Shown in pieces: positions 5,357 to 39,060 of a stretch of DNA of 54,660 nt (positions are counted from its first letter, which is position 1; each line of letters begins with the position of its first letter). Location: the sequence record DRR378314_544, one strand, 5' to 3'. The translations under genes were made by a program, and so were the position numbers. The notes beneath the pieces were generated by a model. That model was given only the letters and a program-made list of their open reading frames with translations. It did not search any database and was not told the origin of the DNA.

Positions 5357-6100
5357 TCAGAGCAGACCCAGGCCTTCAGCCAGTTTTTCGGACGGCACGT
5401 AACCACGCACCATATTACCGTCTTCCAGTACAATCGCCGGGGTGCCTGTCACACCAACGCGACTGCCCAGCTCAAACTGTTCTCTGACCGGGTTCTCGCA
5501 GCTCTGGTCATCTACGGGCCGCCCCTGTTTGGCGGCATTCATGGCAGCCTGCTGGTCATCGGAACACCAGACGGAAATGTACTTGCGAAAAGAAGGGGTA
5601 TTGGGACCGGAACGGGGAAAGCCGTAGTAATTGACGGTAATGCCCAGTTCGTTGAGGCGCGGCACCTCGTCGTGCAGCTTGCGACAGTACGGGCAATCGA
5701 TATCGGTAAACACCGCAATGGACGCCTTCTCGGCACCCTTGGCCGGGAAACTGATCAGCCCCTTGTCGCCGAAGTCATCGAGGGTTTGGGCTCGCTGGGA
5801 CGCCCTGCCCTGTTCTGAGATATTGGCAATGCCGCTATCGGTCACCTTTAGCATGTCGCCGGTCAGGAGATACTGACCATCCGCCGTGGTGAAAATGGTG
5901 TCGCCGTTATTACTGTACACCTCGTACAGACCCTCTGCTTCGGATTCACGGACCTCGGAAATTTTCAGCCCCGGAATCGCCGCGGTGAGTTTGTCGGCAA
6001 TGGCGTCCTCAACCTCGCCCGCATAGGCGCCTTGCACACCAAACGCCACAATGGCGAGCATCAGCGGCAGACAGGGTTTGAACAGGTTCTTGATCAGCAT
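5357..6100 (-). CDS. dsbC: Thiol:disulfide isomerase DsbC
   Basis: Signal peptide, FTDIDCPYC active site, GTPA cis-Pro loop, xerD-dsbC synteny. Confidence 0.92.
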   Translation of the reverse strand: MLIKNLFKPCLPLMLAIVAFGVQGAYAGEVEDAIADKLTAAIPGLKISEVRESEAEGLYEVYSNNGDTIFTTADGQYLLTGDMLKVTDSGIANISEQGRASQRAQTLDDFGDKGLISFPAKGAEKASIAVFTDIDCPYCRKLHDEVPRLNELGITVNYYGFPRSGPNTPSFRKYISVWCSDDQQAAMNAAKQGRPVDDQSCENPVREQFELGSRVGVTGTPAIVLEDGNMVRGYVPSEKLAEGLGLL

Positions 6101-6242
6101 ATTGGTTTCCAGTTTCCAGAATCACGAAGTTATGTAGCCATTCAGACGGCGAATTCCGCCGAGTTTATGCGACACCGCTGCCCGCAAAAAGTTCAGTGTA
6201 GCAAGCGGCACCGCCGCCGACTAACCCGTCACATCATCCGCC

Positions 6243-7175
6243 CTAACCCCGTGGGTGATGGGCCTGGTGCAGCGACTGCAAACGCTGACGCGCCACGTGG
6301 GTATAGATCTGGGTTGTTGAAAGATCCGAATGCCCAAGCAGCATCTGGACTACCCGTAAGTCCGCACCGTGATTCAACAGATGAGTCGCAAAGGCATGCC
6401 GAAGCGTATGGGGTGAAAGGTGTTTATGTATTCCGGCCCTGAGGGCGTAGTGCTTGATACGGTACCAGAAGGTCTGCCGAGTCATCGCAACCGGACGATT
6501 GCCGGGAAACAGGGCGTTGCTCGCCCGCCCCTTGAGAAGCTCTCCCCGACCTTCCCTCATGTAACGCACCAGCCAATCAACGGCTTCCTCACCAAGAGGA
6601 ACCAGCCGCTCCTTGTTGCCCTTGCCAACAATTCTGATTACACCCTGGCGCAGGTTGACTTCATCAACGGTCAACGCCACCAGCTCCGAAACCCGCAAAC
6701 CACAACCGTACAGAATCTCCATCATCGCCTTGTCGCGAAGCTCGATCGGCACCTCGGGGTCAGGTTCTATCAACAAATTCTCCACGTCCTCCTCAGAGAG
6801 GGAGTCTGGCAACCGCGGCGGAAGGCGGGGACTGTCTATTCGCAGCGTGGGATCTTCAGCGATCACGCCTTCTCGCAGAAGGTAGCGAAAAAAACGGCGC
6901 AAACCAGAAAGGCGACGGGCAGCTGTGGAGGTCTTGAAGCCATCGGCCAGCCCACGGGATATCCAGGCCAGCAAATCGGTACGACGCACCTCTTTCAGCA
7001 GGGGCCTGCCCGGCTGCTCCTGCAACCAGGCCGCCAACCGCTCGAGGTCACTCCGGTAGGCTTGTCGCGTTTTTTCACCAAGACCATCTTCGAGCCAGAC
7101 GGCATCGGTGAAACGTACGATAATGGCTTCGTCCTGGGGCCGAAGCTCAACTCTGGATTCGGGTTTGCGGGGCAT
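6243..7175 (-). CDS. xerD: Tyrosine recombinase XerD
   Basis: GLRVSEL, GKGNKER, HTLRHAFATH, LLGHSDLSTTQIYTHV. Chromosomal context. Confidence 0.96.
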   Translation of the reverse strand: MPRKPESRVELRPQDEAIIVRFTDAVWLEDGLGEKTRQAYRSDLERLAAWLQEQPGRPLLKEVRRTDLLAWISRGLADGFKTSTAARRLSGLRRFFRYLLREGVIAEDPTLRIDSPRLPPRLPDSLSEEDVENLLIEPDPEVPIELRDKAMMEILYGCGLRVSELVALTVDEVNLRQGVIRIVGKGNKERLVPLGEEAVDWLVRYMREGRGELLKGRASNALFPGNRPVAMTRQTFWYRIKHYALRAGIHKHLSPHTLRHAFATHLLNHGADLRVVQMLLGHSDLSTTQIYTHVARQRLQSLHQAHHPRG

Positions 7176-7226
7176 GACGTCCTACTCGAAACGAAACAGA
7201 CAAGGACAGTTCCAGTAACCGGACAC

Positions 7227-7255
7227 GAAAAAGGCAGCCGAGGGCTGCCTTTTTC
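7227..7255. terminator. Intrinsic terminator after rplS (symmetric, could act in both directions)
   Basis: GAAAAAGGCAGCC-GAG-GGCTGCCTTTTTC, 30 nt downstream of the rplS stop. Confidence 0.85.
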
Positions 7256-20880: not shown

Positions 20881-22455
20881 TCAGAGGGTATGCTCCACGG
20901 GCTTCTTGCGAGGCCAGACCAGACTGAACCGGGCCCCGCCCAATTCGTCACTGCGGCTGACAAATGCCTGCCCGCCATGCCAGTAGAGAATCCGCCTGAC
21001 AATAGAGAGGCCAAGACCATAACCGCCCGATGTCCGGGTGCGACTGTCATCAAGGCGAGCGAACGCGGTGAATACCTTTTCCCAATCCTCTTCGGGGATA
21101 CCGGGGCCATCGTCTTCCACATCGATGCGGCAATTGTCCTCATCAAACTGGCAATGAACACGGACACGGCCCGCTGCGTAACGGGTGGCATTCCCCACCA
21201 GGTTCTGGACCGCCCGGTGCAGGTATCGCGGTTCGACATCCGACAACGACCAGCGCTCGGACTCTTCATCAATCTCGGCTTCGATGATGTGTTCCGCACG
21301 AATCATCTGCTGCTCGCTCACCACCTGGCGGACAATGTCACTTACCGAACGTTCCTGCAGCGCAAAAACCGGCCCACCCTGCTCCAGACGCGCATAGGTC
21401 AGGATCTCGTCGATCAGCTCGTCCAATTCCTGAATGTCGCCGTCAATACCATCAAGCTGTTTATGGAGCGCCTCTGGAGAGTTGGCACTCTCGATCATCT
21501 GAACACCAAAGCGAATGCGGGCCACCGGCGTTCTCAGTTCGTGGGAAACCGCGTGGATCATCTCCCGCTGAACCCCCACCAGGCGCTGTATGTGCTCCGC
21601 CATGCTGTTGAAGGCGGCCGCCAGCCTGGACACAAGGCGACTGTCGCCAGCATCCACCCGAGCTCCCATCTCACCCCTGGCAATGCGGATTGCTACCGAT
21701 TCCACGGCCCGGAGGTTGCTGTCCACATCCTTTAACGCCAGATACAGGGCCAATGCCAGCACGCCCCCCGCCACGAAAAGCAACAGCAGGATAACCGGCC
21801 AGGCCCAGGGGCTGAACGGCGCAGGCATTGCCATGTCGACAAGAGTGCCGTCTTCCAGACGGATCAACACTTGGGCGCGCCCCCGCGAGGGATGGTGGTA
21901 CAGCGAAATTCCCCTCTCGGAGACCCGCTCCAGAACCTCGGAGTCCGGAAGCTCTGCCTGATCCCGAACCGGCATCAATTCGACCCCGAGCGTATCGGAC
22001 AACTGCGACATGGCACCTTCCCGCCCGTCCGAGGAAAATTCGTCCAGGTGAAGGCGTGCGATGAGGGCTGTCGCTTCGGCAACGTCGCTGTAGATGTCGC
22101 GGAATCGCAGATCGATGATGCCGCCACTATCGCCTTGCACCATCACCTGCTGACCGATGCTGGTATCCAGAGCCACCACTTGGCCATAGGAAAGGCGCTC
22201 CATGACAACGTCCGTCACCGACAGATTACCGGGAGGTGTCACGCGAAAATCGTAGAATGACTCAAGCCAGGGGTACTGCTGTTGTGGATAGGGGGTCGCG
22301 ACAAGCCAGCGCAACAGCGGCTCTGAAAACCGCTCCTGCCAGAATTGCTCCCTGACGGAATTCACACCCAGGAACAAGGCTGCACAGAACAGGAGGATCA
22401 GAAAGGTCAGGCCAATCAGCCGGGCATAGAGCTTTAGAAAAAACTTGAGGGGCAT
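20881..22455 (-). CDS. HAMP sensor histidine kinase (RstB/BfmS-like)
   Basis: Two TM helices, HAMP, H-box SHELRTP, NLVGNA, DDGPG, GGYGLGL. Start at ATG 22455 or TTG 22476 is uncertain. Confidence 0.9.
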   Translation of the reverse strand: MPLKFFLKLYARLIGLTFLILLFCAALFLGVNSVREQFWQERFSEPLLRWLVATPYPQQQYPWLESFYDFRVTPPGNLSVTDVVMERLSYGQVVALDTSIGQQVMVQGDSGGIIDLRFRDIYSDVAEATALIARLHLDEFSSDGREGAMSQLSDTLGVELMPVRDQAELPDSEVLERVSERGISLYHHPSRGRAQVLIRLEDGTLVDMAMPAPFSPWAWPVILLLLFVAGGVLALALYLALKDVDSNLRAVESVAIRIARGEMGARVDAGDSRLVSRLAAAFNSMAEHIQRLVGVQREMIHAVSHELRTPVARIRFGVQMIESANSPEALHKQLDGIDGDIQELDELIDEILTYARLEQGGPVFALQERSVSDIVRQVVSEQQMIRAEHIIEAEIDEESERWSLSDVEPRYLHRAVQNLVGNATRYAAGRVRVHCQFDEDNCRIDVEDDGPGIPEEDWEKVFTAFARLDDSRTRTSGGYGLGLSIVRRILYWHGGQAFVSRSDELGGARFSLVWPRKKPVEHTL

Positions 22456-22513
22456 TGGGTTAACCCTGGCAATCAACGCCGGCCCTGCCGGGCCAGCGCC
22501 AGAGACTGAACAG

Positions 22514-23251
22514 TCAGGCTTCCTTTACAAAGAGGTAGCCTTTGCTGCGTACGGTTTTAATGCGCCTCGGGTGGATGGGATCGTCGCCAATCTTGGGACG
22601 TATCCTGGAAACCCGGACATCGATCGAACGGTCCTGGCCGTCGTATTCGATGCCTCGCAGGGCGGTAAAGATTTCCTCCCGGCTGAGCACGCGGCCAGCG
22701 TTGCTTGCGAGCAACCAGAGCAGATCGAATTCGGCGCTGGTGAGGTCGATGCTTTCATCGCTCAACCACGCTTCTCGCATGGAGCGATCCACCACCAGGT
22801 TGTTGAACTGCAACCGGACCGGCTCTTCGCCGCTGCCCTCTTCCGCAGCCACCGTGCCATTCTCGGTGACCCGTCGCAGCAGGGCACGAATTCGCGCCAA
22901 CAAAACCCTTGGCTGAACCGGCTTGCCGATGTAATCGTCAGCGCCCATTTCCAGGCCAAGCACCTGGTCCAGGTCGTCCGTGCGGGCGGTAAGCATGATG
23001 ATCGGGCCCGGATAAAAAGGCCGTGCACGCCTGCAGATGGACAGCCCGTCTTCACCGGGCAACATGAGGTCAAGCACGACCAGATCAGGCTGCTCCTTGC
23101 GGATGCGCTCCACTGCCTGGCCACCATGGGTTTCAAGGGTGACGGTCAGACCATTGCTCTCCAGGTATTCCCTGGTCAGCTCCGCCAGCCTCTCATCATC
23201 TTCGACTATAAGAATCCGCCAACTTTCGTTCGTCTGTTCCACGCCATCCAT
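22514..23251 (-). CDS. OmpR-family response regulator (RstA/BfmR-like)
   Basis: VEDD, LDLMLPG, GADDY.KP, winged helix DRSIDVRVSRIR..IKTVRSKGY. Confidence 0.92.
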   Translation of the reverse strand: MDGVEQTNESWRILIVEDDERLAELTREYLESNGLTVTLETHGGQAVERIRKEQPDLVVLDLMLPGEDGLSICRRARPFYPGPIIMLTARTDDLDQVLGLEMGADDYIGKPVQPRVLLARIRALLRRVTENGTVAAEEGSGEEPVRLQFNNLVVDRSMREAWLSDESIDLTSAEFDLLWLLASNAGRVLSREEIFTALRGIEYDGQDRSIDVRVSRIRPKIGDDPIHPRRIKTVRSKGYLFVKEA

Positions 23252-23465: not shown

Positions 23466-23527
23466 CTGTCACGAAGTCGTCATCCCTCGTTCATTCCGAT
23501 GTCACACCGGATTCATAGCCTTGTCGA
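23466..23527 (+). promoter_or_regulatory. Tandem Pho-box array (PhoB half-sites at 11-bp period) upstream of olsB
   Basis: CTGTCAC-gaag-TCGTCAT-ccct-CGTTCAT-tccg-ATGTCAC-accg-GATTCAT-agcc-TTGTCGA, compared with the consensus CTGTCAT-N4 repeat. Confidence 0.75.
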
Positions 23528-23552
23528 AAAGTGGAAACAAAGAGGCATTGCC

Positions 23553-24317
23553 ATGAACGCCCAGAATGCTCGTCTGTCACGCTCGGCCCGAAGACTCAAA
23601 ACCGTCATCACTCAACAGCCGGACCTCGTTGAATCGGCCCAGAGACTGCGTTACCAGGTTTTTTCGGAAGAGTATGGTTCTGACCTTGGCGCAGCCATTC
23701 CCGGTATCGATGCGGACGAATTCGATCAGTTCTGCGACCACCTGATCGTCACCGACGAGAACACAGGAGAACTCGTGGCCACAACGCGGGTACTGCACCA
23801 CAGCCAGGCGATGAAAGCCGGTGGCTTCTATTCCGAAGGTGAGTTCGAGCTCTCATCCCTCTACCAACTCCCCGGCACCGTCGCCGAGCTCGGGAGAACC
23901 TGCGTGCACCCGGATTATCGCAACGGCGCCACCATAAGCCTGTTGTGGGCTTCCGTTGCAGAGTACCTGGTATCACGGAACGTGGATTACCTGATCGGCT
24001 GCGCCAGTATCGGCATGTCGGATGGCGGACTCAAGGCCTGGCGTATAGCACGCTACCTGCAGCGGGAGTTCCTGGCCGGTGAGGAATACCGGGTAACGCC
24101 GTTACGGGCTCTGCCTCACCTGACCCACACGGTCAGCGAAGATCGCCCGGTGGACGTTCCCGCCCTGATCAAGGCCTATATGCGCCTTGGCGCCCGTGTG
24201 TGCGGTGAGCCCTGCTGGGATCCGGAATTCCGCTGCGCGGATCTGCTGGTGGTTCTGGATGTTAATAATCTGGCCAGCCGCTACAGCCGGCACTTCATGC
24301 GCAAGCAGGCTCAGTAA
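23553..24317 (+). CDS. olsB: GNAT N-acyltransferase, ornithine lipid synthesis (OlsB-like)
   Basis: AQRLRYQVF, GIDADEFD..CDHL, ELGRTCVHPDYR, LIKAYMRLGA..CGEP.WDPEF. Start set at ATG 23553 after AGAGG, because the ORF-track ATG lies inside the Pho array. Confidence 0.85.
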   Translation: MNAQNARLSRSARRLKTVITQQPDLVESAQRLRYQVFSEEYGSDLGAAIPGIDADEFDQFCDHLIVTDENTGELVATTRVLHHSQAMKAGGFYSEGEFELSSLYQLPGTVAELGRTCVHPDYRNGATISLLWASVAEYLVSRNVDYLIGCASIGMSDGGLKAWRIARYLQREFLAGEEYRVTPLRALPHLTHTVSEDRPVDVPALIKAYMRLGARVCGEPCWDPEFRCADLLVVLDVNNLASRYSRHFMRKQAQ

Positions 24318-24353: not shown

Positions 24354-25160
24354 ATGGAACTGATACGCCTGACCACAAGACTGACCCTCTTCGCCGGTTT
24401 TCTGTGCCTGACGGCGACCCTCGCTGGCACACTGCTGCTGGCAGAGGCGCTGCTCCGACGCCGAATCAATCGCGCCCCTTTTGCCCGCCTCTGTTTCAAC
24501 GGCGCCAGCCGCTGCCTGGGCTTCGATATAGCCACCCGGGGCAGTTTCAGCGACCGGCCCGTACTCTTTGTCAGCAATCATATCTCCTGGTCGGACATAC
24601 CCGTGCTCGGCGGACAAATACCCCTGCGCTTCCTGTCAAAGGCGGAAGTGGGCCGCTGGCCGGTGATCGGGTGGCTGGCCACGCAGGCGGGCACACTGTT
24701 TATTCAGCGCGGCAGCGGCATGGCCGGCCAGGCCCGCCACGAAATCGCCAACACCCTGCTAAGCGGACAGTCGGTGCTGGTGTTTCCCGAGGGCACCACC
24801 ACGGCGGGCGTGACGGTACTGCCCTTTCACAGCCGCCTGCTCCACGCCGCCGTGGACGCGGGCGTGGACATACAGCCCCTCAGCATTGGTTACCTGAGGA
24901 ATGGCCACCCGGACCACCTGGCGCCGTTTATTGGCGACGACGAGTTTCAGCATCATATGATTCGCATGCTCCGCCAGCCCGCGGTGGAGGTCGGCGTCAT
25001 CGCCCATCCGGTGGTGACCGTCAGTAGCAACATGGACCTGGCTGAGGTAACGCGGGATCTGCGACAGACGGTACAGGAGGGGTTGCGGCAAATTCAGACG
25101 GGGCGCCTGTCAGCGGAGGCAACAGGCGGGCCGACCGTGGTCGCCGGCCCGAAGATGTAA
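24354..25160 (+). CDS. olsA: Lyso-ornithine lipid O-acyltransferase (PlsC family, OlsA-like)
   Basis: NHISWSD (HX4D) and VFPEGT motifs; directly follows olsB. Confidence 0.82.
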   Translation: MELIRLTTRLTLFAGFLCLTATLAGTLLLAEALLRRRINRAPFARLCFNGASRCLGFDIATRGSFSDRPVLFVSNHISWSDIPVLGGQIPLRFLSKAEVGRWPVIGWLATQAGTLFIQRGSGMAGQARHEIANTLLSGQSVLVFPEGTTTAGVTVLPFHSRLLHAAVDAGVDIQPLSIGYLRNGHPDHLAPFIGDDEFQHHMIRMLRQPAVEVGVIAHPVVTVSSNMDLAEVTRDLRQTVQEGLRQIQTGRLSAEATGGPTVVAGPKM

Positions 25161-29599: not shown

Positions 29600-29637
29600 G
29601 CGTACTCCAGATTTGGTTGCTGAAAAAGGTAAAGGGA

Positions 29638-29682
29638 TTGTCACGGGACTGTCCCGGAACTGTCATGCCAGGTTTCCATAGT
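29638..29682 (+). promoter_or_regulatory. Pho-box promoter (three half-sites plus -10)
   Basis: TTGTCAC-ggga-CTGTCCC-ggaa-CTGTCAT, then 10 bp, then CATAGT. This is canonical PhoB promoter geometry. Confidence 0.8.
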
Positions 29683-29715
29683 AGAAGTATGAAAGAGGAA
29701 ACCACAGGAAACACC

Positions 29716-30936
29716 GTGACGAGAACCACCCAGGCTTCAGGGCGCAGGCATCACATTACCATTGTTTCGGAGACCTTTCCTCCGGAAATCAACGGTGTGG
29801 CGAACACCCTGAGGCATTTGTGTCTCGGGTTGATGCAACGCGGCCACAAGGTGACTGTCATCCGCCCACGCCAGCGTCACGAGTCAAAAGGACGGTTCGA
29901 AGGTGCCGGTGAATGCCTGTTCTCCGACGAGCACGTGGTTACCGGCCTCCCGTTACCCGGCTACAGCGACTTGAGATTCGGGGTGGCCCGGCCTGGGTTC
30001 CTGACCTCGCTCTGGAAACGACAACGCCCGGATGCCGTTTACGTGGCCACCCAGGGGCCTCTCGGGGTGGCCGCCGTGGCCGCCGCCAGGCAATCCGGCA
30101 TTCCCGTCAGCTCCGGCTTCCACACCAACTTCCATGCCTACAGCCGCTACTACGGCGCGGGGTTCCTGGAAAAGCTCCTATGCGGCTACGGCCGCTGGTT
30201 CCACAACAGGACCGCCATCACGCTGGTGCCAACCCGTAAGATTGCACAGACCACCCATGATATGGGCATTCATCCCACATCGGTCTGGAGCCGGGGCGTC
30301 GACTGCAACCGGTTTTCGCCGCACAAGCGGGACCTGGCGCTCAGGCACCAATGGGGACTGAACCCCAACGACCGTGCCGTTCTTTATGTTGGTCGCCTGG
30401 CTCCCGAAAAGAACCTCCAGATGGCGGTTTCCTGCTTTGAACGCATCCGCGGGCTGCACCCCTGCGCAAAATTCATACTGGTGGGCGATGGCCCGATGCG
30501 CAAGCGCCTCGCCGAGCGTCATCCGGATTACATTTTTGCCGGCACACGCCGTGGCGAGGATCTGGCCCGACACTATGCGTCTGGTGATATTTTCCTGTTC
30601 CCCAGCAAGACGGACACCTTCGGCAACGTGGTCACCGAAGCCATGGCCAGCGGGCTTGCCGTGGTTGCCTTCGACGATGCCGCCGCCAGCGAGCATGTCC
30701 GTCACGAAGACAATGGCATGAAGGCCCACCTAAGCGATGACGAGGGTTTTGTAGACCATGCCCTCCGTCTGGCTGACCAACCTACGCTCATGAACCGGAT
30801 ACGTGCGCAGGCACGCCTGGATGCCCTGGAACTGAACTGGGCTGTCCAGATTGAGCAGTTCGAGCACCTGATACTGAACCAGCCACAGAGGAACAGCTAC
30901 AATGCCCTCCACAAGCAAGGCATCTCGCTTCTTTAA
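29716..30936 (+). CDS. GT4 glycosyltransferase, Agt/MgtA-like (probable diacylglycerol glycosyltransferase)
   Basis: SETFPPEINGVA, HTNFHAY, RGVD, YVGRLAPEKN, FPSKTDTFGNVVTEAMASG. Start at GTG 29716 (AGGA RBS) or ATG 29689. Confidence 0.85.
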   Translation: MTRTTQASGRRHHITIVSETFPPEINGVANTLRHLCLGLMQRGHKVTVIRPRQRHESKGRFEGAGECLFSDEHVVTGLPLPGYSDLRFGVARPGFLTSLWKRQRPDAVYVATQGPLGVAAVAAARQSGIPVSSGFHTNFHAYSRYYGAGFLEKLLCGYGRWFHNRTAITLVPTRKIAQTTHDMGIHPTSVWSRGVDCNRFSPHKRDLALRHQWGLNPNDRAVLYVGRLAPEKNLQMAVSCFERIRGLHPCAKFILVGDGPMRKRLAERHPDYIFAGTRRGEDLARHYASGDIFLFPSKTDTFGNVVTEAMASGLAVVAFDDAAASEHVRHEDNGMKAHLSDDEGFVDHALRLADQPTLMNRIRAQARLDALELNWAVQIEQFEHLILNQPQRNSYNALHKQGISLL

Positions 30937-31477
30937 TGTGGTGGATCAGAGGGAGTTTGCCCTCTGTCAGTCCATCAACCGGTCCCTGAGGTTTCGTCCC
31001 GTCCAGGGCTATTTCAAGGTTGTCAGCCGACTGGGCGATGGCTGGCTGTGGTACCTGGTCATCCTGTCCCTGCCAGCGATCATGCCCCAGAATGGGCTGG
31101 CCATCGCGCTGCTGATGGTGGCCACGGGGCTGACCTGCACTATTACCTACAAGCTGCTGAAGCGCTGGCTGATCCGCGAGCGGCCCTTCATATCGTTTCC
31201 GTCGATTAACTGCGGCACACCGCCACTGGATCGATACAGTTTTCCTTCCGGTCATACGCTACACGCGGTTTGCTTCAACACTGTACTGGCCATGACGGCA
31301 CCCGAGCTGGCCTGGCTGTTGCTGCCCTTTACCCTGAGCGTTGCCGCCTCACGGGTGGTGCTTGGGCTGCACTATCCCAGCGACGTGGCGGCGGGGGCGT
31401 TGATTGGCGGCTGCCTCGGTCTGGCCTCAGTCAATGGCCTGTTCGACCTGTTTATTCAAATAGCCGCAACTGCGTAA
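30902..31477 (+). CDS. PAP2-family membrane phosphatase
   Basis: Intact C1 [10 protein letters not shown]2 FPSGH and C3 [12 protein letters not shown]. Overlaps the GT4 gene by 35 bp. Confidence 0.9.
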
Positions 31478-32516
31478 CCGGCGACTCGTCGTTGCGGAAG
31501 CGTACCCCTAATCCAAGCAAGCGCACAGGGCGCCCCGTATCGGTAACCAATTCATCCAGCAGTGGCTGGTAATCGTCAAGTTCAGGCTCTCGAACCTGAT
31601 CCCGCACCCGTTCAAGCGTGTGGGTGGAAAAGTCGCTGTAACGAATCTTGATAAACAGCTTGTGGATGGGTTTTCGACCCGCCTTGCGGCTGAGCCTAAG
31701 ATTCAGGTCCGCCACCAGTGAGGCCATCACCGATTCACAGGCGCGCTTGTCCGGCAGGTCCTGGGAAAATGTTCGTTCCACGCTGACGGACTTGGCGATG
31801 CGCGACACCACCACATCGCGGTCGTCCCGGCCGAACGCCATTTCCCTCAACCGATACCCCTGCTTGCCGAATTTCTCCGGCAGGGCTTCGGCGGGTAGCG
31901 CCTGAATATCGCCGCAGGTGGCAACACCCATTGCGTGAAGTTTGCCAGCGGTCACCTGTCCCACCCCGAACAGTTTTTCAACCTTCAGGTCCTGAACAAA
32001 CCCCTCCACATCCTCCGGGCGGATCACAAACAGCCCATCCGGCTTTTTCCAGTCACTGGCAATCTTCGCCAGAAACTTGTTGGGGGCTACGCCGGCGGAA
32101 ATGGTTATCCCCACCTCGTCCTTCACCCGCTTGCGCAGATATTGGGCCATCAGCGTGGCGCTGCCCTTGTGCTCGGTGATCTCGCTGACATCCAGAAACG
32201 CTTCATCCAGTGACAGCGGCTCCACCAGATCGGTCAATTCCCTCAAGATGGTCATCACCTGTTTCGACACCGCCCGGTACCGGGCCATGTCCGGCGGCAC
32301 GGTCACCAGCCCGGGGCACAAGCGACGGGCCTCGCCGCCGGGCATAGCGGAGCGCACGCCAAAGGCTCTCGCTTTATAGTTGCAGGTGGTAACCACCCCA
32401 CGGCCACCTTCGCCACCTACGGCCAGTGGAACCTCCCGTAACGAGGGGTCGTCCCGCATTTCCACGGCGGCGTAGAAGCAATCGCAATCTACATGGATAA
32501 TCTTGCGCTGGGCCAT
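31452..32516 (-). CDS. dinB: DNA polymerase IV
   Basis: [49 protein letters not shown]. Confidence 0.97.
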
Positions 32517-32640: not shown

Positions 32641-32922
32641 ATGACGAACCCTATCCCGGAACAATCACAGACCGAAATCGAAGCCGCCGCGTTTCGAAAG
32701 CTGGTGAACCATCTGCGTGAACACACCGAGGTCCAGAACATCGACCTGATGAACCTGGCCGGGTTCTGTCGCAACTGCCTTTCCAAATGGTATCGCGCCG
32801 AGGCCGCCGAGAGGGGCTTCGAACTGTCTGATCCCGACGCTCGTGAGATCATCTACGGCATGCCTTACGAGCAGTGGAAAGCCCACTATCAACAGGGCCC
32901 GAAACAGGATCACGGTGCATGA
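32641..32922 (+). CDS. DUF1244 family protein
   Basis: EAAAFRKLV.HL, VQNIDLMNLAGFCRNCLSKWY, YGMPY..WK. Confidence 0.85.
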   Translation: MTNPIPEQSQTEIEAAAFRKLVNHLREHTEVQNIDLMNLAGFCRNCLSKWYRAEAAERGFELSDPDAREIIYGMPYEQWKAHYQQGPKQDHGA

Positions 32923-33308
32923 ACGTCAACGACGCGGTTCGCATCCACCTGGCGTCGGTCGAAGCCGGCCACGGCGACTTTGACGACACCCTGGCGCTGA
33001 TCGACCGCTTTTTCGACTACCAGCCCACCGGGTTCCACAACGGCCCGATGTACAACGGTGCCGGCGAAAATGCCGGTTCCTGCCGGGTGTTTTCCCTGGC
33101 CCAGTACTGCAACCTGACCGAAACCGACACCTTGCGTCTGTTTGCCCAGCACTACCGGCAGGTGCTGGATGAGCCGGCGGGCGAGAGCCACGGCAATATC
33201 CGCCAGTTCATGGGCACCGGCTGGTCTGGTATCCGCTTTGACGGCCCGGCGCTTCGCAAGCGCCCGGCTACCACTCAGGACGACACCACGGAAGAGACCC
33301 ATCCATGA
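32919..33308 (+). CDS. HopJ-family small protein
   Basis: FDDTLALID..FDYQPTGF.NG, N.AGENAGSC, FAQHYRQVL, H.NIRQFM..GW.GI.F. ATGA overlap with the upstream stop. Confidence 0.8.
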   Translation: MNVNDAVRIHLASVEAGHGDFDDTLALIDRFFDYQPTGFHNGPMYNGAGENAGSCRVFSLAQYCNLTETDTLRLFAQHYRQVLDEPAGESHGNIRQFMGTGWSGIRFDGPALRKRPATTQDDTTEETHP

Positions 33309-35209: not shown

Positions 35210-36223
35210 TTACCAGCGGGCAAAGTGATCCTCCATCAGTCCCCGTAGGCCATCTACGGGGACAGGGTTGCCTGCTTCATCCTGCACCGTGCCGGAAAAA
35301 GTACCAATGTACTGACGGAAATTGGACGCGATCAGCAACGCATTGAGTCGCTCCCGCCGAACCCCCGAAGGCTCAAACCGGAGATCGATTTTTCCGTCGT
35401 CCGTGGTGACCTGCCAGGGCGCGGTTTCATCATAGCGATCGAAGACAAAGCGGGACTGCCCCAGCTTGATACAGCGCCCGTCCAGCCAGAGCGCGTTTTC
35501 CGTCATGCCGGTCTCATTCACACCCGCCGCCAAATTGAGCCCAACGGAACGCCCGTCTGCCAGCACGCCTGACAGGCTCGCCCAGTTCCAGGCGGTCTCG
35601 CGCCTCATGAAGCCACAACTCCAATCGACCGCTGCCCGCGACTGAGGGCCGCACTGTCGGTTCTGCCCCTGCCAGCGGATAGCCCCGGATACCGGCAGGC
35701 CCGCTGACTTGCGGGTAAACACCCACCCGTTGTAACCCGCCCGGCACGCCAGCCGCAGCGGATGTGCGTCTGCTTCCATGTTCAGGTCTATCTGGAGATC
35801 ACCGGGCCCGGAGACGGAAACACCGCGCGTATGGCCGTCCGAGGCAATGCGCACACACGTCTTCCCTTTGCGAAATTCCGTCGTCCCGGCTTCCGGCCGG
35901 GGCTCAATGCGGGTAGCCCGCGCAAACGGCTGTGTCAGCGACTGCTCCAGCATCTGCCCGGTGTCAAAGTCGTAAAGGTAAAAGAACGCCGTACTGACCA
36001 GTTTCAGGTCCACCACCGCCAGCCCGAATACCCACCCTGGCGCCGTCACACTGACAAACTGAAACTGGTTGAAGCGGATTCTGCGAGCCAGGGCCGACCG
36101 GGGCTTATCCATGACCGTACGCAGGTCGAAATCCCGGTAGTTGATGACATCCACGGGTGCATCGAATACGCCGAAAGGAATCTGCCCCCGGTCATCAATC
36201 AGTCGCTTGTTCGTTTTTTTCAT
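35210..36223 (-). CDS. Conserved hypothetical protein (DUF2804-like)
   Basis: About 337 aa, beta-rich, with DWSCGFMRRETAWNW, GLNL..G, ENALW.DG, GLMEDHFARW. Start at 36223 or 36229. Confidence 0.7.
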   Translation of the reverse strand: MKKTNKRLIDDRGQIPFGVFDAPVDVINYRDFDLRTVMDKPRSALARRIRFNQFQFVSVTAPGWVFGLAVVDLKLVSTAFFYLYDFDTGQMLEQSLTQPFARATRIEPRPEAGTTEFRKGKTCVRIASDGHTRGVSVSGPGDLQIDLNMEADAHPLRLACRAGYNGWVFTRKSAGLPVSGAIRWQGQNRQCGPQSRAAVDWSCGFMRRETAWNWASLSGVLADGRSVGLNLAAGVNETGMTENALWLDGRCIKLGQSRFVFDRYDETAPWQVTTDDGKIDLRFEPSGVRRERLNALLIASNFRQYIGTFSGTVQDEAGNPVPVDGLRGLMEDHFARW

Positions 36224-36354
36224 CGTCAATTCGGGCCAAATGTTAACGTCAGGAATTCAGTCAGTTACCCAGTTCACAAACCCCTGATCGTAGCAGGCTG
36301 GCACCAGATCAGTCGTGGTAGACTCGCCCGACCATGTTCAAGGAAGTGTACCTC

Positions 36355-37674: not shown

Positions 37675-39060
37675 ATGCCAAGAGCACCGCAGGCTCGCAG
37701 AAAGATGTATGTCCTCGACACCAACGTCCTCATCCACGACCCGAACGCCCTCCTGAACTTTGAAGAACACGACGTCATCATCCCGATGACGGTCCTCGAA
37801 GAACTCGACAGTCTCAAATCCGGCAAGCAGGCCGTTGCTGCCGATTGCCGACAGGCCATCCGCAACATCGACAAACTGCTGGGTGATGCCAGCCCCGGAG
37901 AGATCGAGAAAGGCGTCCCCATCGTGCGTGGCAAGAAGGCAGAACCTCTTGGCGCGCTATCGATACTGATGAGCACGGATTACCAGGGCAACCATGGCCT
38001 GCCCGAGCACCTTAACGACAACAAGATCATCAATACCCTGGCGGCCCTGCAAACCCGCCACAAGTCGCGGGACATCATCCTTGTCAGCAAGGACATCAAC
38101 ATGCGGCTGAAGGCCCGGGGCTTCGGCGTGGAAGCCCAGGACTACCACAACGACATGCTGCTGGATGACATCGACCTGCTGCCCAAGGGTTACAAAGAGT
38201 TCCCGAACTCTTTCTGGGACACCATTGAAAAAGTGGAGACCATCCAGCGGGAAGGCATTACCGAGCACATCCTGCGCCGGGAAGGCGACCTGGCAAAACT
38301 GACCATCAACGAGTTCGTGATTGATGAACAGGGCTTCGTGGGCAAGGTTTCCGATGTTGGCGACGACAAAATTGTCATCCGCGACCTTCACCAGCACGAC
38401 CTGATGCATGAGGAAGTGTGGGGGCTGGTGCCACGGGACATCTATCAGGCCATTGCCCTGAACCTACTGCTGGATCCGGACATCCACCTGGTGAACCTGA
38501 CCGGTTCCGCCGGCTCCGGCAAGACCATCCTGGCCCTGGCCGCCTGCATTGAGATGACCGTGGCCAGCAAGCTGTACAAACGCATCATTGCTACCCGCAG
38601 CACCCAGGGGCTGGACGAAGACATCGGCTTCCTCCCCGGCACCGAGGCGGAGAAAATGGAGCCCTGGCTGGGCGCCATCGTGGACAACCTGGAAGCCCTC
38701 CACGAAGACGACGAGAACATGACCGCCAGCGTGGACTACATCCTCAGCAAGGTACCGCTGCACTTCAAGTCGATGAACTACATTCGGGGACGCAGCTTCC
38801 AGCACAGCCTGATCATCATTGACGAGTCCCAGAACCTGACACCACACCAGATCAAGACCATCATCACCCGTGCCGGTAACGGTTCCAAGGTGATCTGCCT
38901 GGGCAACCTGGCACAGATCGACACGCCCTACCTGAGCGCCCTGAGCTCGGGCCTGACCTACATGACCGAGCGCTTCAAGAGCTTTCGCCATGGTGGCCAC
39001 ATTCACCTGCAGGGCGTCCCGCGTTCTGTTCTGGCGGAGTACGCGGAAGCGAATCTCTAA
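37675..39060 (+). CDS. PIN-domain PhoH-family ATPase (PhoH2-like)
   Basis: N-terminal PIN (VLDTNVLIHD, EELD, NDNKI, SKDINMR) plus PhoH (GSAGSGKT, GFLPG, IRGRS, DESQN, GNLAQID). Confidence 0.92.
   Translation: MPRAPQARRKMYVLDTNVLIHDPNALLNFEEHDVIIPMTVLEELDSLKSGKQAVAADCRQAIRNIDKLLGDASPGEIEKGVPIVRGKKAEPLGALSILMSTDYQGNHGLPEHLNDNKIINTLAALQTRHKSRDIILVSKDINMRLKARGFGVEAQDYHNDMLLDDIDLLPKGYKEFPNSFWDTIEKVETIQREGITEHILRREGDLAKLTINEFVIDEQGFVGKVSDVGDDKIVIRDLHQHDLMHEEVWGLVPRDIYQAIALNLLLDPDIHLVNLTGSAGSGKTILALAACIEMTVASKLYKRIIATRSTQGLDEDIGFLPGTEAEKMEPWLGAIVDNLEALHEDDENMTASVDYILSKVPLHFKSMNYIRGRSFQHSLIIIDESQNLTPHQIKTIITRAGNGSKVICLGNLAQIDTPYLSALSSGLTYMTERFKSFRHGGHIHLQGVPRSVLAEYAEANL

Follow-up and report, generated by a model that had tools for sequence, protein, structure and literature searches.

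Replacement of membrane phospholipids by glycolipids is a major phosphorus-saving route in marine and soil bacteria, and it affects antibiotic tolerance in pathogens. To our knowledge, published models of this exchange contain one source of diacylglycerol, the phospholipase PlcP. Lipid renovation under phosphate stress by the PlcP-Agt pathway is described, in the available text of two sources, for Sinorhizobium, Phaeobacter MED193, SAR11 HTCC7211 and Pseudomonas aeruginosa (PA3219/PA3218/PA0842) (PMC4796936, PMC8528852). According to the same part of PMC8528852, PA0842 (Agt2) has a Pho box and yields glucuronosyl-diacylglycerol when expressed in Escherichia coli. Burkholderia cenocepacia has an operon plcP-agt-dagK, in which DagK is proposed to recycle surplus diacylglycerol (PMC13691135, available text). 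Here we analyse a stretch of DNA of 54,660 nucleotides (nt) from sequence record DRR378314_544 (hereafter the window), in which a predicted Pho promoter precedes a gene for a glycosyltransferase of family GT4 (hereafter GT4) that overlaps a gene for a PAP2-family phosphatase (hereafter PAP2). In our best reading, to which we give an even chance, this is an operon of the PhoB regulon in which PAP2 converts phosphatidate to diacylglycerol for GT4, complementing PlcP. Judged by sequence, the source of the window is a Marinobacter: the GT4 proteins of M. salarius R9SW1, M. algicola DG893, M. iranensis and one Marinobacter metagenome-assembled genome (MAG) share 92–94% identity with that of the window. 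The elements of the locus, with lengths in base pairs (bp) or amino acids (aa), are as follows.

29638 to 29666, plus strand: Pho box of three direct half-sites at 11-bp spacing, TTGTCAC (29638–29644), CTGTCCC (29649–29655) and CTGTCAT (29660–29666).
29677 to 29682, plus strand: -10 hexamer CATAGT, 10 bp past the last half-site, with no -35 hexamer noted.
29689 to 30936, plus strand: GT4 (GT-B) glycosyltransferase, 415 aa long; Pfam and the neighbourhoods of its relatives point to a probable Agt2-type (PA0842) diacylglycerol glycolipid synthase.
30902 to 31477, plus strand: small membrane PAP2 lipid-phosphate phosphatase of 191 aa, by PF01569, catalytic motifs and a structure model.

GT4 and the Pho box are expected members of the published PlcP-Agt(-DagK) system. 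The locus resembles that pathway in several respects: (i) it has a Pho-box promoter; (ii) its GT4 is a lipid glycosyltransferase whose relatives adjoin plcP and dgkA; (iii) its expected products are glucosyl- or glucuronosyl-diacylglycerol, which would replace phospholipids at low phosphate; and (iv) close Marinobacter relatives have a PlcP-like gene elsewhere, for which a separate Pho box was read in M. salarius. By contrast, the operon partner of GT4 here is PAP2 and not PlcP or DagK. A GT4 enzyme behind a Pho box is likewise what the available text of PMC8528852 describes for Agt2, whereas the Pseudomonas loci in our data (L090 and L091) have no PAP2 beside GT4. In the literature searched, we found no description of a bacterial Pho-regulated pair of PAP2 and a glycosyltransferase, although subscription journals and supplements may hold one; the term PAP2 has no occurrence in the main text of PMC8528852, and zero was scored for PMC13691135, PMC9239053 and PMC4796936. 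The original prediction had put the locus forward as a candidate for an undescribed system.

The proposed use of PAP2 has a parallel in photosynthetic organisms. Nakamura et al. in 2007 reportedly described plant plastidic and cyanobacterial phosphatidate phosphatases of the PAP2/LPP family. Likened by description only, these share the proposed logic, in which a PAP2-type phosphatidate phosphatase feeds glycolipid synthesis; the case here differs in that the PAP2 gene is joined to a glycosyltransferase gene, in a Pho-regulated operon and in heterotrophic bacteria. The available text of PMC4796936 states that diacylglycerol arises either by dephosphorylation of phosphatidate or by head-group removal, and suggests phosphatidate phosphatases as its source in cyanobacteria, which are largely without PlcP.

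The promoter can be compared with chance and with relatives. Positions 29649–29666 are the top match to CTGTCATNNNNCTGTCAT across the window, with two mismatches over the 14 specified consensus positions. At up to three mismatches, the window has nine matches compared to a shuffle mean of 4.1, and at least nine were reached in 4 of 100 shuffles. The triple half-site pattern occurs once in the window compared to 0.03 expected, a figure that is biased because the pattern was composed after the site was seen. In the upstream regions of 21 Marinobacter sequences, the half-sites and the -10 box are the most conserved portion: half-site 3 (CTGTCA) and CATAGT are invariant (21/21), half-sites 1 and 2 are at least 90% kept, and the flanks and the sequence further upstream diverge. 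Upstream of GT4-PAP2 pairs outside Marinobacter, a site with at least 11 of the 14 consensus positions is present in 7 of 16 cases compared to 38 of 3000 background windows (1.3%), and one with at least 10 positions in 14 of 16 compared to 6.5%; the background windows come from the same loci as the 16 pairs, several of which are closely related to each other.

A generic sigma-70 scan found no -35/-10 promoter on the plus strand, as is expected for a PhoB-dependent promoter without a -35 box. The Pho box of E. coli phoA likewise lies 10 bp from its -10 element. The sequence features of a PhoB-type promoter are present here, i.e. at least two CTGTCAT-like 7-bp repeats at 11-bp periodicity, a box in place of the -35 element and a footprint across relatives. 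A Pho promoter is well supported by these sequence features, and we have high confidence that the two genes would form a Pho-regulated operon. The footprint across 21 sequences and the enrichment of sites at distant pairs uphold the PhoB-type promoter that had been proposed upstream of GT4.

The Pho promoter, the GT4 gene and its 35-bp overlap with an intact PAP2 gene, all claimed at the outset, were each found again when the sequence was re-read. The GT4 open frame spans 29617–30936 and likely starts at ATG 29689 or GTG 29716. The second start, preceded by AGGA, gives a protein of 406 aa, the commonest length among the GT4 relatives listed; in the upstream alignment it is replaced by GCG in M. 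algicola, M. salarius and L003. ATG 29689 lies 6 nt past the -10 hexamer, a spacing retained in most of the 21 aligned Marinobacter sequences, so that the GT4 mRNA may be leaderless. The two frames share 30902–30936, and a GAGGA ribosome-binding site lies 8 nt ahead of the PAP2 ATG. An aldo-keto reductase gene is located upstream of GT4 in divergent orientation; on the other side, a convergent DNA polymerase IV gene (dinB, 31452–32516) shares 26 nt (31452–31477) with the 3' end of PAP2. In M. salarius R9SW1 (L009, CP007152.1), GT4 at about 6001–7244 stays in a single frame only as far as residue 347, and the locus lacks 1 nt compared to the other strains; the break reflects either a frameshift in this complete genome or an error in its sequencing.

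The GT4 protein matches PF13439, PF13692 and PF00534, all over the Pfam cut-off, which gives a two-domain GT-B architecture. It reaches no NCBIfam equivalog cut-off. The best two NCBIfam models are both glycerolipid glycosyltransferases, i.e. GpgS (132 bits, cut-off 480) and alpha-MGlcDAG synthase (90 bits, cut-off 400), and weaker matches include cell-envelope glycan enzymes. GpgS, whose model (NF053787) scores best, is the GlcNAc-phosphatidylglycerol synthase of the P. aeruginosa gpgSDF operon (PMC12713373, available text); it too belongs to family GT4 and has a membrane glycerolipid as its substrate. We nevertheless rejected a GpgS identity for the window GT4, given its score and its neighbours, which are PAP2, the aldo-keto reductase and DinB, with no adjoining deacetylase or flippase gene.

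Genomic neighbourhoods place this GT4 among lipid genes. Relatives at 46–52% identity adjoin PlcP-like, DgkA and OlsB genes. Among the 80 genome loci found with the GT4 protein (19 Marinobacter-type and 61 others), 28 have a PlcP-like metallophosphoesterase gene (~280 aa) within the locus. Most of these 28 are from Rhodocyclales and have the order olsB, second GT4, dgkA, GT4 and plcP, which resembles the plcP-agt-dagK operon of B. cenocepacia (PMC13691135, available text). GT4s directly after plcP (the Agt1 arrangement, e.g. L104) are only ~32% identical to that of the window. The two Pseudomonas loci without an adjacent PAP2 (L090 and L091) hold a GT4 that is 50–51% identical to it. Their flanking genes encode glutathione peroxidase, an OYE-type oxidoreductase, CysZ, thioredoxin reductase or a CHASE4-GGDEF protein, the first four of which are the neighbours of the 51% identical GT4, in a genome of the fluorescens group; among the best 120 matches, the closest named proteins to the L090 GT4 belong to fluorescens-group and similar Pseudomonas only. 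We take this gene order, in an unconfirmed identification, to be that of the P. aeruginosa PA0838–PA0849 region, which holds PA0842 (Agt2). PA0842–PA0847 form one mapped region that contains plcR, plcH and cerN (PMC5150637). In the window itself, olsB and olsA are located 4.5 kb upstream of GT4. The window GT4 is probably an Agt2-type lipid glycosyltransferase, with orthology as our inference, and our confidence that it would act as a diacylglycerol glycolipid synthase is fairly high. That it is Agt-like, as first proposed, agrees with the occurrence of members of its group in lipid-remodelling clusters with PlcP-like, DgkA and OlsB genes.

Co-occurrence of GT4 and PAP2 across taxa, a check suggested with the original prediction, is borne out: the pair recurs across phyla and is usually overlapping or tightly spaced. 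Every one of the 19 Marinobacter-type loci has PAP2 directly 3' of GT4. The same holds for 10 of the 61 others; these ten include Competibacter, a Burkholderiales MAG, Sulfurimicrobium, a Sulfuritalea, a Phycisphaerales MAG and the acidobacterium Sulfidibacter. Among 151 genomes sampled from the taxonomic order of the window (hereafter the order sample), 22 have a GT4 match at E ≤1e-40 and 12 of these have the pair, four with GT4 identity at the Marinobacter level (73–93%) and eight others. The paired genes mostly overlap or abut. On a GT4 tree of 102 rows (maximum likelihood by a quick method, midpoint root, several long branches flagged), adjacency to PAP2 requires 10 parsimony changes, at least four of them on well-supported branches, which indicates that the pairing recurs in separate clades. 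The PAP2-adjacent GT4s are interleaved with PlcP-adjacent clades and with clades that have neither partner.

A search seeded with PAP2 gave three further arrangements: (i) PAP2 directly after plcP with no glycosyltransferase nearby (L108 and L109); (ii) PAP2 with a glycosyltransferase of the MJ1255/VC2487 family (TIGR00661, over cut-off), next to plcP and olsF, in L110 (5631–7247) and L112 (7241–8793); and (iii) a GT4-PAP2 pair divergent from an OlsB-like gene (L113). In L046, PAP2 is situated between GT4 and plcP. No function was found in the literature for glycosyltransferases of the MJ1255/VC2487 family. From these neighbourhoods, the PAP2 subfamily appears as a regular member of phosphorus-free-lipid gene islands, where its partners are two unrelated lipid-type glycosyltransferases. 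The positions of PAP2 after plcP, or between GT4 and plcP, make it look like a companion of PlcP and not simply a substitute.

PAP2 belongs to its superfamily by sequence and by predicted fold. PF01569 scores 76.9 bits compared to a cut-off of 27.2, and the three motifs KX6RP, PSGH and SRX5HX3D are intact (K87-x6-R94-P95, P115-S-G-H118 and S150-R-x5-H157-x3-D161). The motif residues are invariant or nearly so overall, and K87, R94, P95, S116, G117, H118, R151, H157 and D161 are invariant in 25 PAP2 relatives. PAP2 is under every NCBIfam equivalog cut-off (in bits: SepP 55.7 of 250, PgpB 35 of 261, undecaprenyl-diphosphate phosphatase 25.4 of 229 and PhoC 25.2 of 430). An AlphaFold2 model from the 25-sequence alignment has a pLDDT of 96.1 and a pTM of 0.90, and its closest solved folds are Aquifex LpxE (6ebu; TM 0.81 on target, root-mean-square deviation 2.6 Å, 26% identity) and Bacillus subtilis PgpB (5jki); Aquifex LpxE is also the best sequence match in the PDB (E 4e-9). 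PAP2 resembles LpxE, B. subtilis PgpB/YodM and E. coli PgpB, YbjG and LpxT in fold, in the three catalytic motifs and in a size of ~180–200 aa. Because these nearest folds are broad lipid-phosphate phosphatases, the fold does not name the substrate. Unlike those membrane enzymes, the window PAP2 has glycolipid and aminolipid genes as genomic partners and not peptidoglycan or lipid A genes. Only two PAP2 genes are present per Marinobacter genome. The only other PAP2 domain in G001–G003 sits in an open frame of 500–570 aa (G001:C1:1756279–1756611 and equivalents) and may be part of a fusion protein.

The charge distribution of PAP2 is also distinctive. In the model, the N-terminal region (two amphipathic helices, residues 6–44) lies, by connectivity, on the catalytic-loop side of the membrane. 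Over 25 family members, lysine plus arginine (K+R) averages 13.8 on this N-terminal/active-site side, of which 7.4 fall in the N-terminal region, compared to 0.3 on the other side, which comprises two short loops and the C-terminus. The bias is inverted compared to known enzymes: E. coli YbjG lacks K/R among its first 20 residues and carries six in the C-terminal tail, E. coli PgpB has an RRR loop between the helix following motif 2 and the helix preceding motif 3, the opposite loops and tail of E. coli LpxT are rich in K/R, and the aligned part of Aquifex LpxE has four and two K/R in two loops where the window PAP2 has none. The periplasmic space is given as the place of action of PgpB and YbjG (PMC12401180, available text). 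Since the bias is reversed relative to YbjG, PgpB and LpxT, the positive-inside rule predicts a cytoplasmic N-terminus and an active site that faces the cytoplasm, where phosphatidate is made and GT4 would work. Such an orientation would be unusual among bacterial members of the family.

The original prediction further proposed that the pair is PlcP-independent and self-contained, a part that the related genomes searched do not support for this lineage. A PlcP-like gene is present in five of eight Marinobacter genomes searched (M. salarius, G001; M. algicola, G002; G003; M. denitrificans; and G081) at E ~1e-70; in the first four it is 44–45% identical to a Sulfuritalea PlcP-like query, with E of ~1e-68 to 1e-73. 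No PlcP-like match was obtained in the other three (G004, G028 and G128), among them strain QJJ-212. G001–G003 are nearest to the window on the GT4 tree (GT4 92.8–93.6% identical by tblastn), and all three have the PlcP-like gene (E ~1e-73). In M. salarius this gene stands alone between two methyltransferase genes and is preceded by a triple half-site TTGTCGT, CTGTCAT and TCGTCAT at 11-bp spacing (L082:1405–1445), which gives the genus a further putative Pho promoter for renovating lipids. In the order sample, no PlcP match was obtained in eight of the 12 genomes that carry the pair (six of eight outside Marinobacter), so that the pair can evidently stand without PlcP. It also coexists with PlcP, in places within a single operon, and 'complement' suits PAP2 better than 'replacement'.

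These observations suggest the following mechanism. When phosphate is low, PhoB would occupy the three half-sites and transcription would proceed from the CATAGT -10 box. GT4, presumably cytoplasmic and membrane-associated, would transfer a sugar (probably glucuronate or glucose) from a uridine diphosphate sugar to diacylglycerol, and its products would be phosphorus-free glycolipids. PAP2, a predicted five-helix membrane protein that may be translationally coupled to GT4 through the 35-bp overlap, would most likely dephosphorylate phosphatidate and so supply inorganic phosphate (Pi) and diacylglycerol for GT4, with its active site on the cytoplasmic side, where phosphatidate arises and GT4 acts. 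The result would be a short de novo route from phosphatidate to glycolipid beside the recycling of existing phospholipids by PlcP, with no replacement of PlcP in this lineage. By our own reasoning, PlcP cannot use phosphatidate because phosphatidate has no head group, so with PlcP alone new glycolipid made at low phosphate would pass through finished phospholipids. A Pho-induced phosphatidate phosphatase coupled to a glycolipid synthase would remove that detour and free Pi. Such a role would account for the pairing with two glycosyltransferase families, for presence without PlcP and for coexistence with it, and the pair in order-sample genomes that lack a PlcP match fits a diacylglycerol source of its own. 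A phosphatidate-to-diacylglycerol role is the most economical reading of PAP2 from sequence data; phosphatidate as its substrate, which gene neighbourhood suggests, stands about evenly balanced. Whether the PAP2s tied to Agt-type or MJ1255-type glycosyltransferases and PlcP make up a distinct subfamily of inverted topology, i.e. dedicated Pho-induced phosphatidate phosphatases of a direct de novo glycolipid route in heterotrophic bacteria, is a more tentative proposition that we consider rather doubtful.

Several points weigh against phosphatidate conversion for GT4. The locus is known here from sequence alone, from which activity, lipid profile and expression are all deduced, and PAP2 enzymes are promiscuous. 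The nearest folds, LpxE and PgpB, are annotated as a lipid A enzyme, a phosphatidylglycerophosphate phosphatase and a C55-PP phosphatase, and the top NCBIfam model, far under its cut-off, is the undecaprenyl-diphosphatase SepP. The link to Agt2 consists of 51% identity to one Pseudomonas GT4 and a gene order likened to that around PA0842, not PA0842's own sequence, and the topology prediction has a single basis, i.e. charge composition under the positive-inside rule. One locus (L020) has dgkA immediately 5' of GT4-PAP2 and in the same orientation; joint production of a diacylglycerol kinase and a phosphatidate phosphatase would give a futile cycle unless they are separated or exert push-pull control of the diacylglycerol pool. 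The plcP-PAP2 loci without a glycosyltransferase fit phospholipid breakdown and diacylglycerol supply equally well. An anti-correlation between PlcP and PAP2 was rejected: of the order-sample genomes, 4 of the 12 that carry the pair and 7 of the 10 with GT4 alone have PlcP, a difference that is not significant (one-sided hypergeometric p ~0.10, by hand calculation) among genomes that are related and phylogenetically non-independent. Fusion proteins were likewise dropped as proof of coupling or topology. Five GT4-PAP2 fusions are present in the protein collection (P0246, P0247, P0252, P0253 and P0256), of which P0253 and P0256 look wrong-frame or merged. In metagenome DNA, 13 of 80 loci are partial, and in only two of the 67 with both domains do these form a single open frame (L147 and the contig of P0246 itself, L117), possibly through assembly indels; the other 65 have separate genes, mostly frame-shifted and overlapping, and the close relatives of the main fusion are split and overlapping.

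Alternatively, PAP2 could be a Pho-induced general lipid-phosphate phosphatase that frees Pi, adjacent to GT4 through shared regulation only. Its substrates could include phosphatidylglycerophosphate (from C-type cleavage of cardiolipin), lysophosphatidate, diacylglycerol pyrophosphate, undecaprenyl diphosphate or lipid A 1-phosphate. The broad range of the nearest folds and sequence matches (Aquifex LpxE and B. subtilis PgpB) is consistent with this, as are the loci with PAP2 directly after plcP or between GT4 and plcP, the mere two PAP2 genes per Marinobacter genome and the phosphatidylglycerophosphate that PlcP would yield from cardiolipin, the last being our chemical reasoning and not a result. 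However, the partner of PAP2 is far more often a glycosyltransferase than plcP, the pairing recurs with two unrelated glycosyltransferase families, and the usual gene overlap suggests coupled translation. A role downstream of PlcP cannot hold in the eight paired order-sample genomes without a PlcP match, and a cytoplasmic active site, if real, would be out of reach of lipid A and recycled undecaprenyl diphosphate on the periplasmic face. We regard a general phosphatase as unlikely.

A strict self-contained route that replaces PlcP, with phosphatidate as the sole diacylglycerol source for glycolipids, seems quite improbable to us. It would agree with the three Marinobacter and eight paired order-sample genomes that gave no PlcP-like match, and with a Pfam scan of the window's larger open frames, in which no Metallophos match and hence no plcP was seen in 54.7 kb, no dedicated PlcP search of the window having been made; but M. 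salarius, M. algicola and G003 all carry the PlcP-like gene, which in M. salarius has its own triple half-site Pho box. Finally, the pair might not serve membrane glycolipids: GT4 could build a glycan on polyprenyl-phosphate or modify lipopolysaccharide or lipid A, and PAP2 could recycle undecaprenyl diphosphate or remove the lipid A 1-phosphate. GT4 is a very large family with many envelope glycan enzymes, some of them among the weaker NCBIfam matches, and PAP2 has its best matches in SepP (NCBIfam) and LpxE (PDB). Against this, the flanking genes encode an aldo-keto reductase and DNA polymerase IV and include no polysaccharide, lipopolysaccharide or lipid A genes, relatives of GT4 are embedded with PlcP-like, DgkA and OlsB/OlsF genes and not with glycan export genes, both top NCBIfam models are glycerolipid glycosyltransferases, and Pho boxes fit lipid renovation. 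A glycan or lipid A function is therefore very improbable in our view, and the conversion of phosphatidate to diacylglycerol for GT4, beside PlcP, remains our preferred explanation.

Other genes of the window lie on both sides of the pair. The genes olsB (23499–24317) and olsA (24354–25160) form an OlsB/OlsA ornithine-lipid pair, both under the NCBIfam cut-offs. A Pho-box-like site, CTGTCACGAAGTCGTCAT (three mismatches), is located at 23466–23483, 15 nt ahead of the listed ATG of olsB; this leaves no space for a -10 box and a leader, so that either olsB truly starts further downstream or the site does not belong to a promoter. The minus strand at 20881–23251, divergent from olsB, encodes an OmpR-type response regulator and a histidine kinase; we rejected this two-component pair as PhoB/PhoR, as its best scores are RstA/RstB-like and under cut-off. 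Downstream of GT4-PAP2 are genes for a HopJ-like protein (32874–33308), a DUF2804 protein (35210–36229) and a PIN-PhoH fusion protein (37675–39060), with minC and minD situated between them; no connection to GT4-PAP2 was seen.

If true, a Pho-regulated lipid phosphatase coupled to a glycolipid synthase would add a missing direct step from phosphatidate to phosphate-stress lipid renovation. Renovation could then bypass finished phospholipids and run without PlcP where PlcP is lacking. This would explain lipid remodelling in genomes without PlcP, and it would change how plcP serves to mark phosphorus stress in metagenomes from the ocean.

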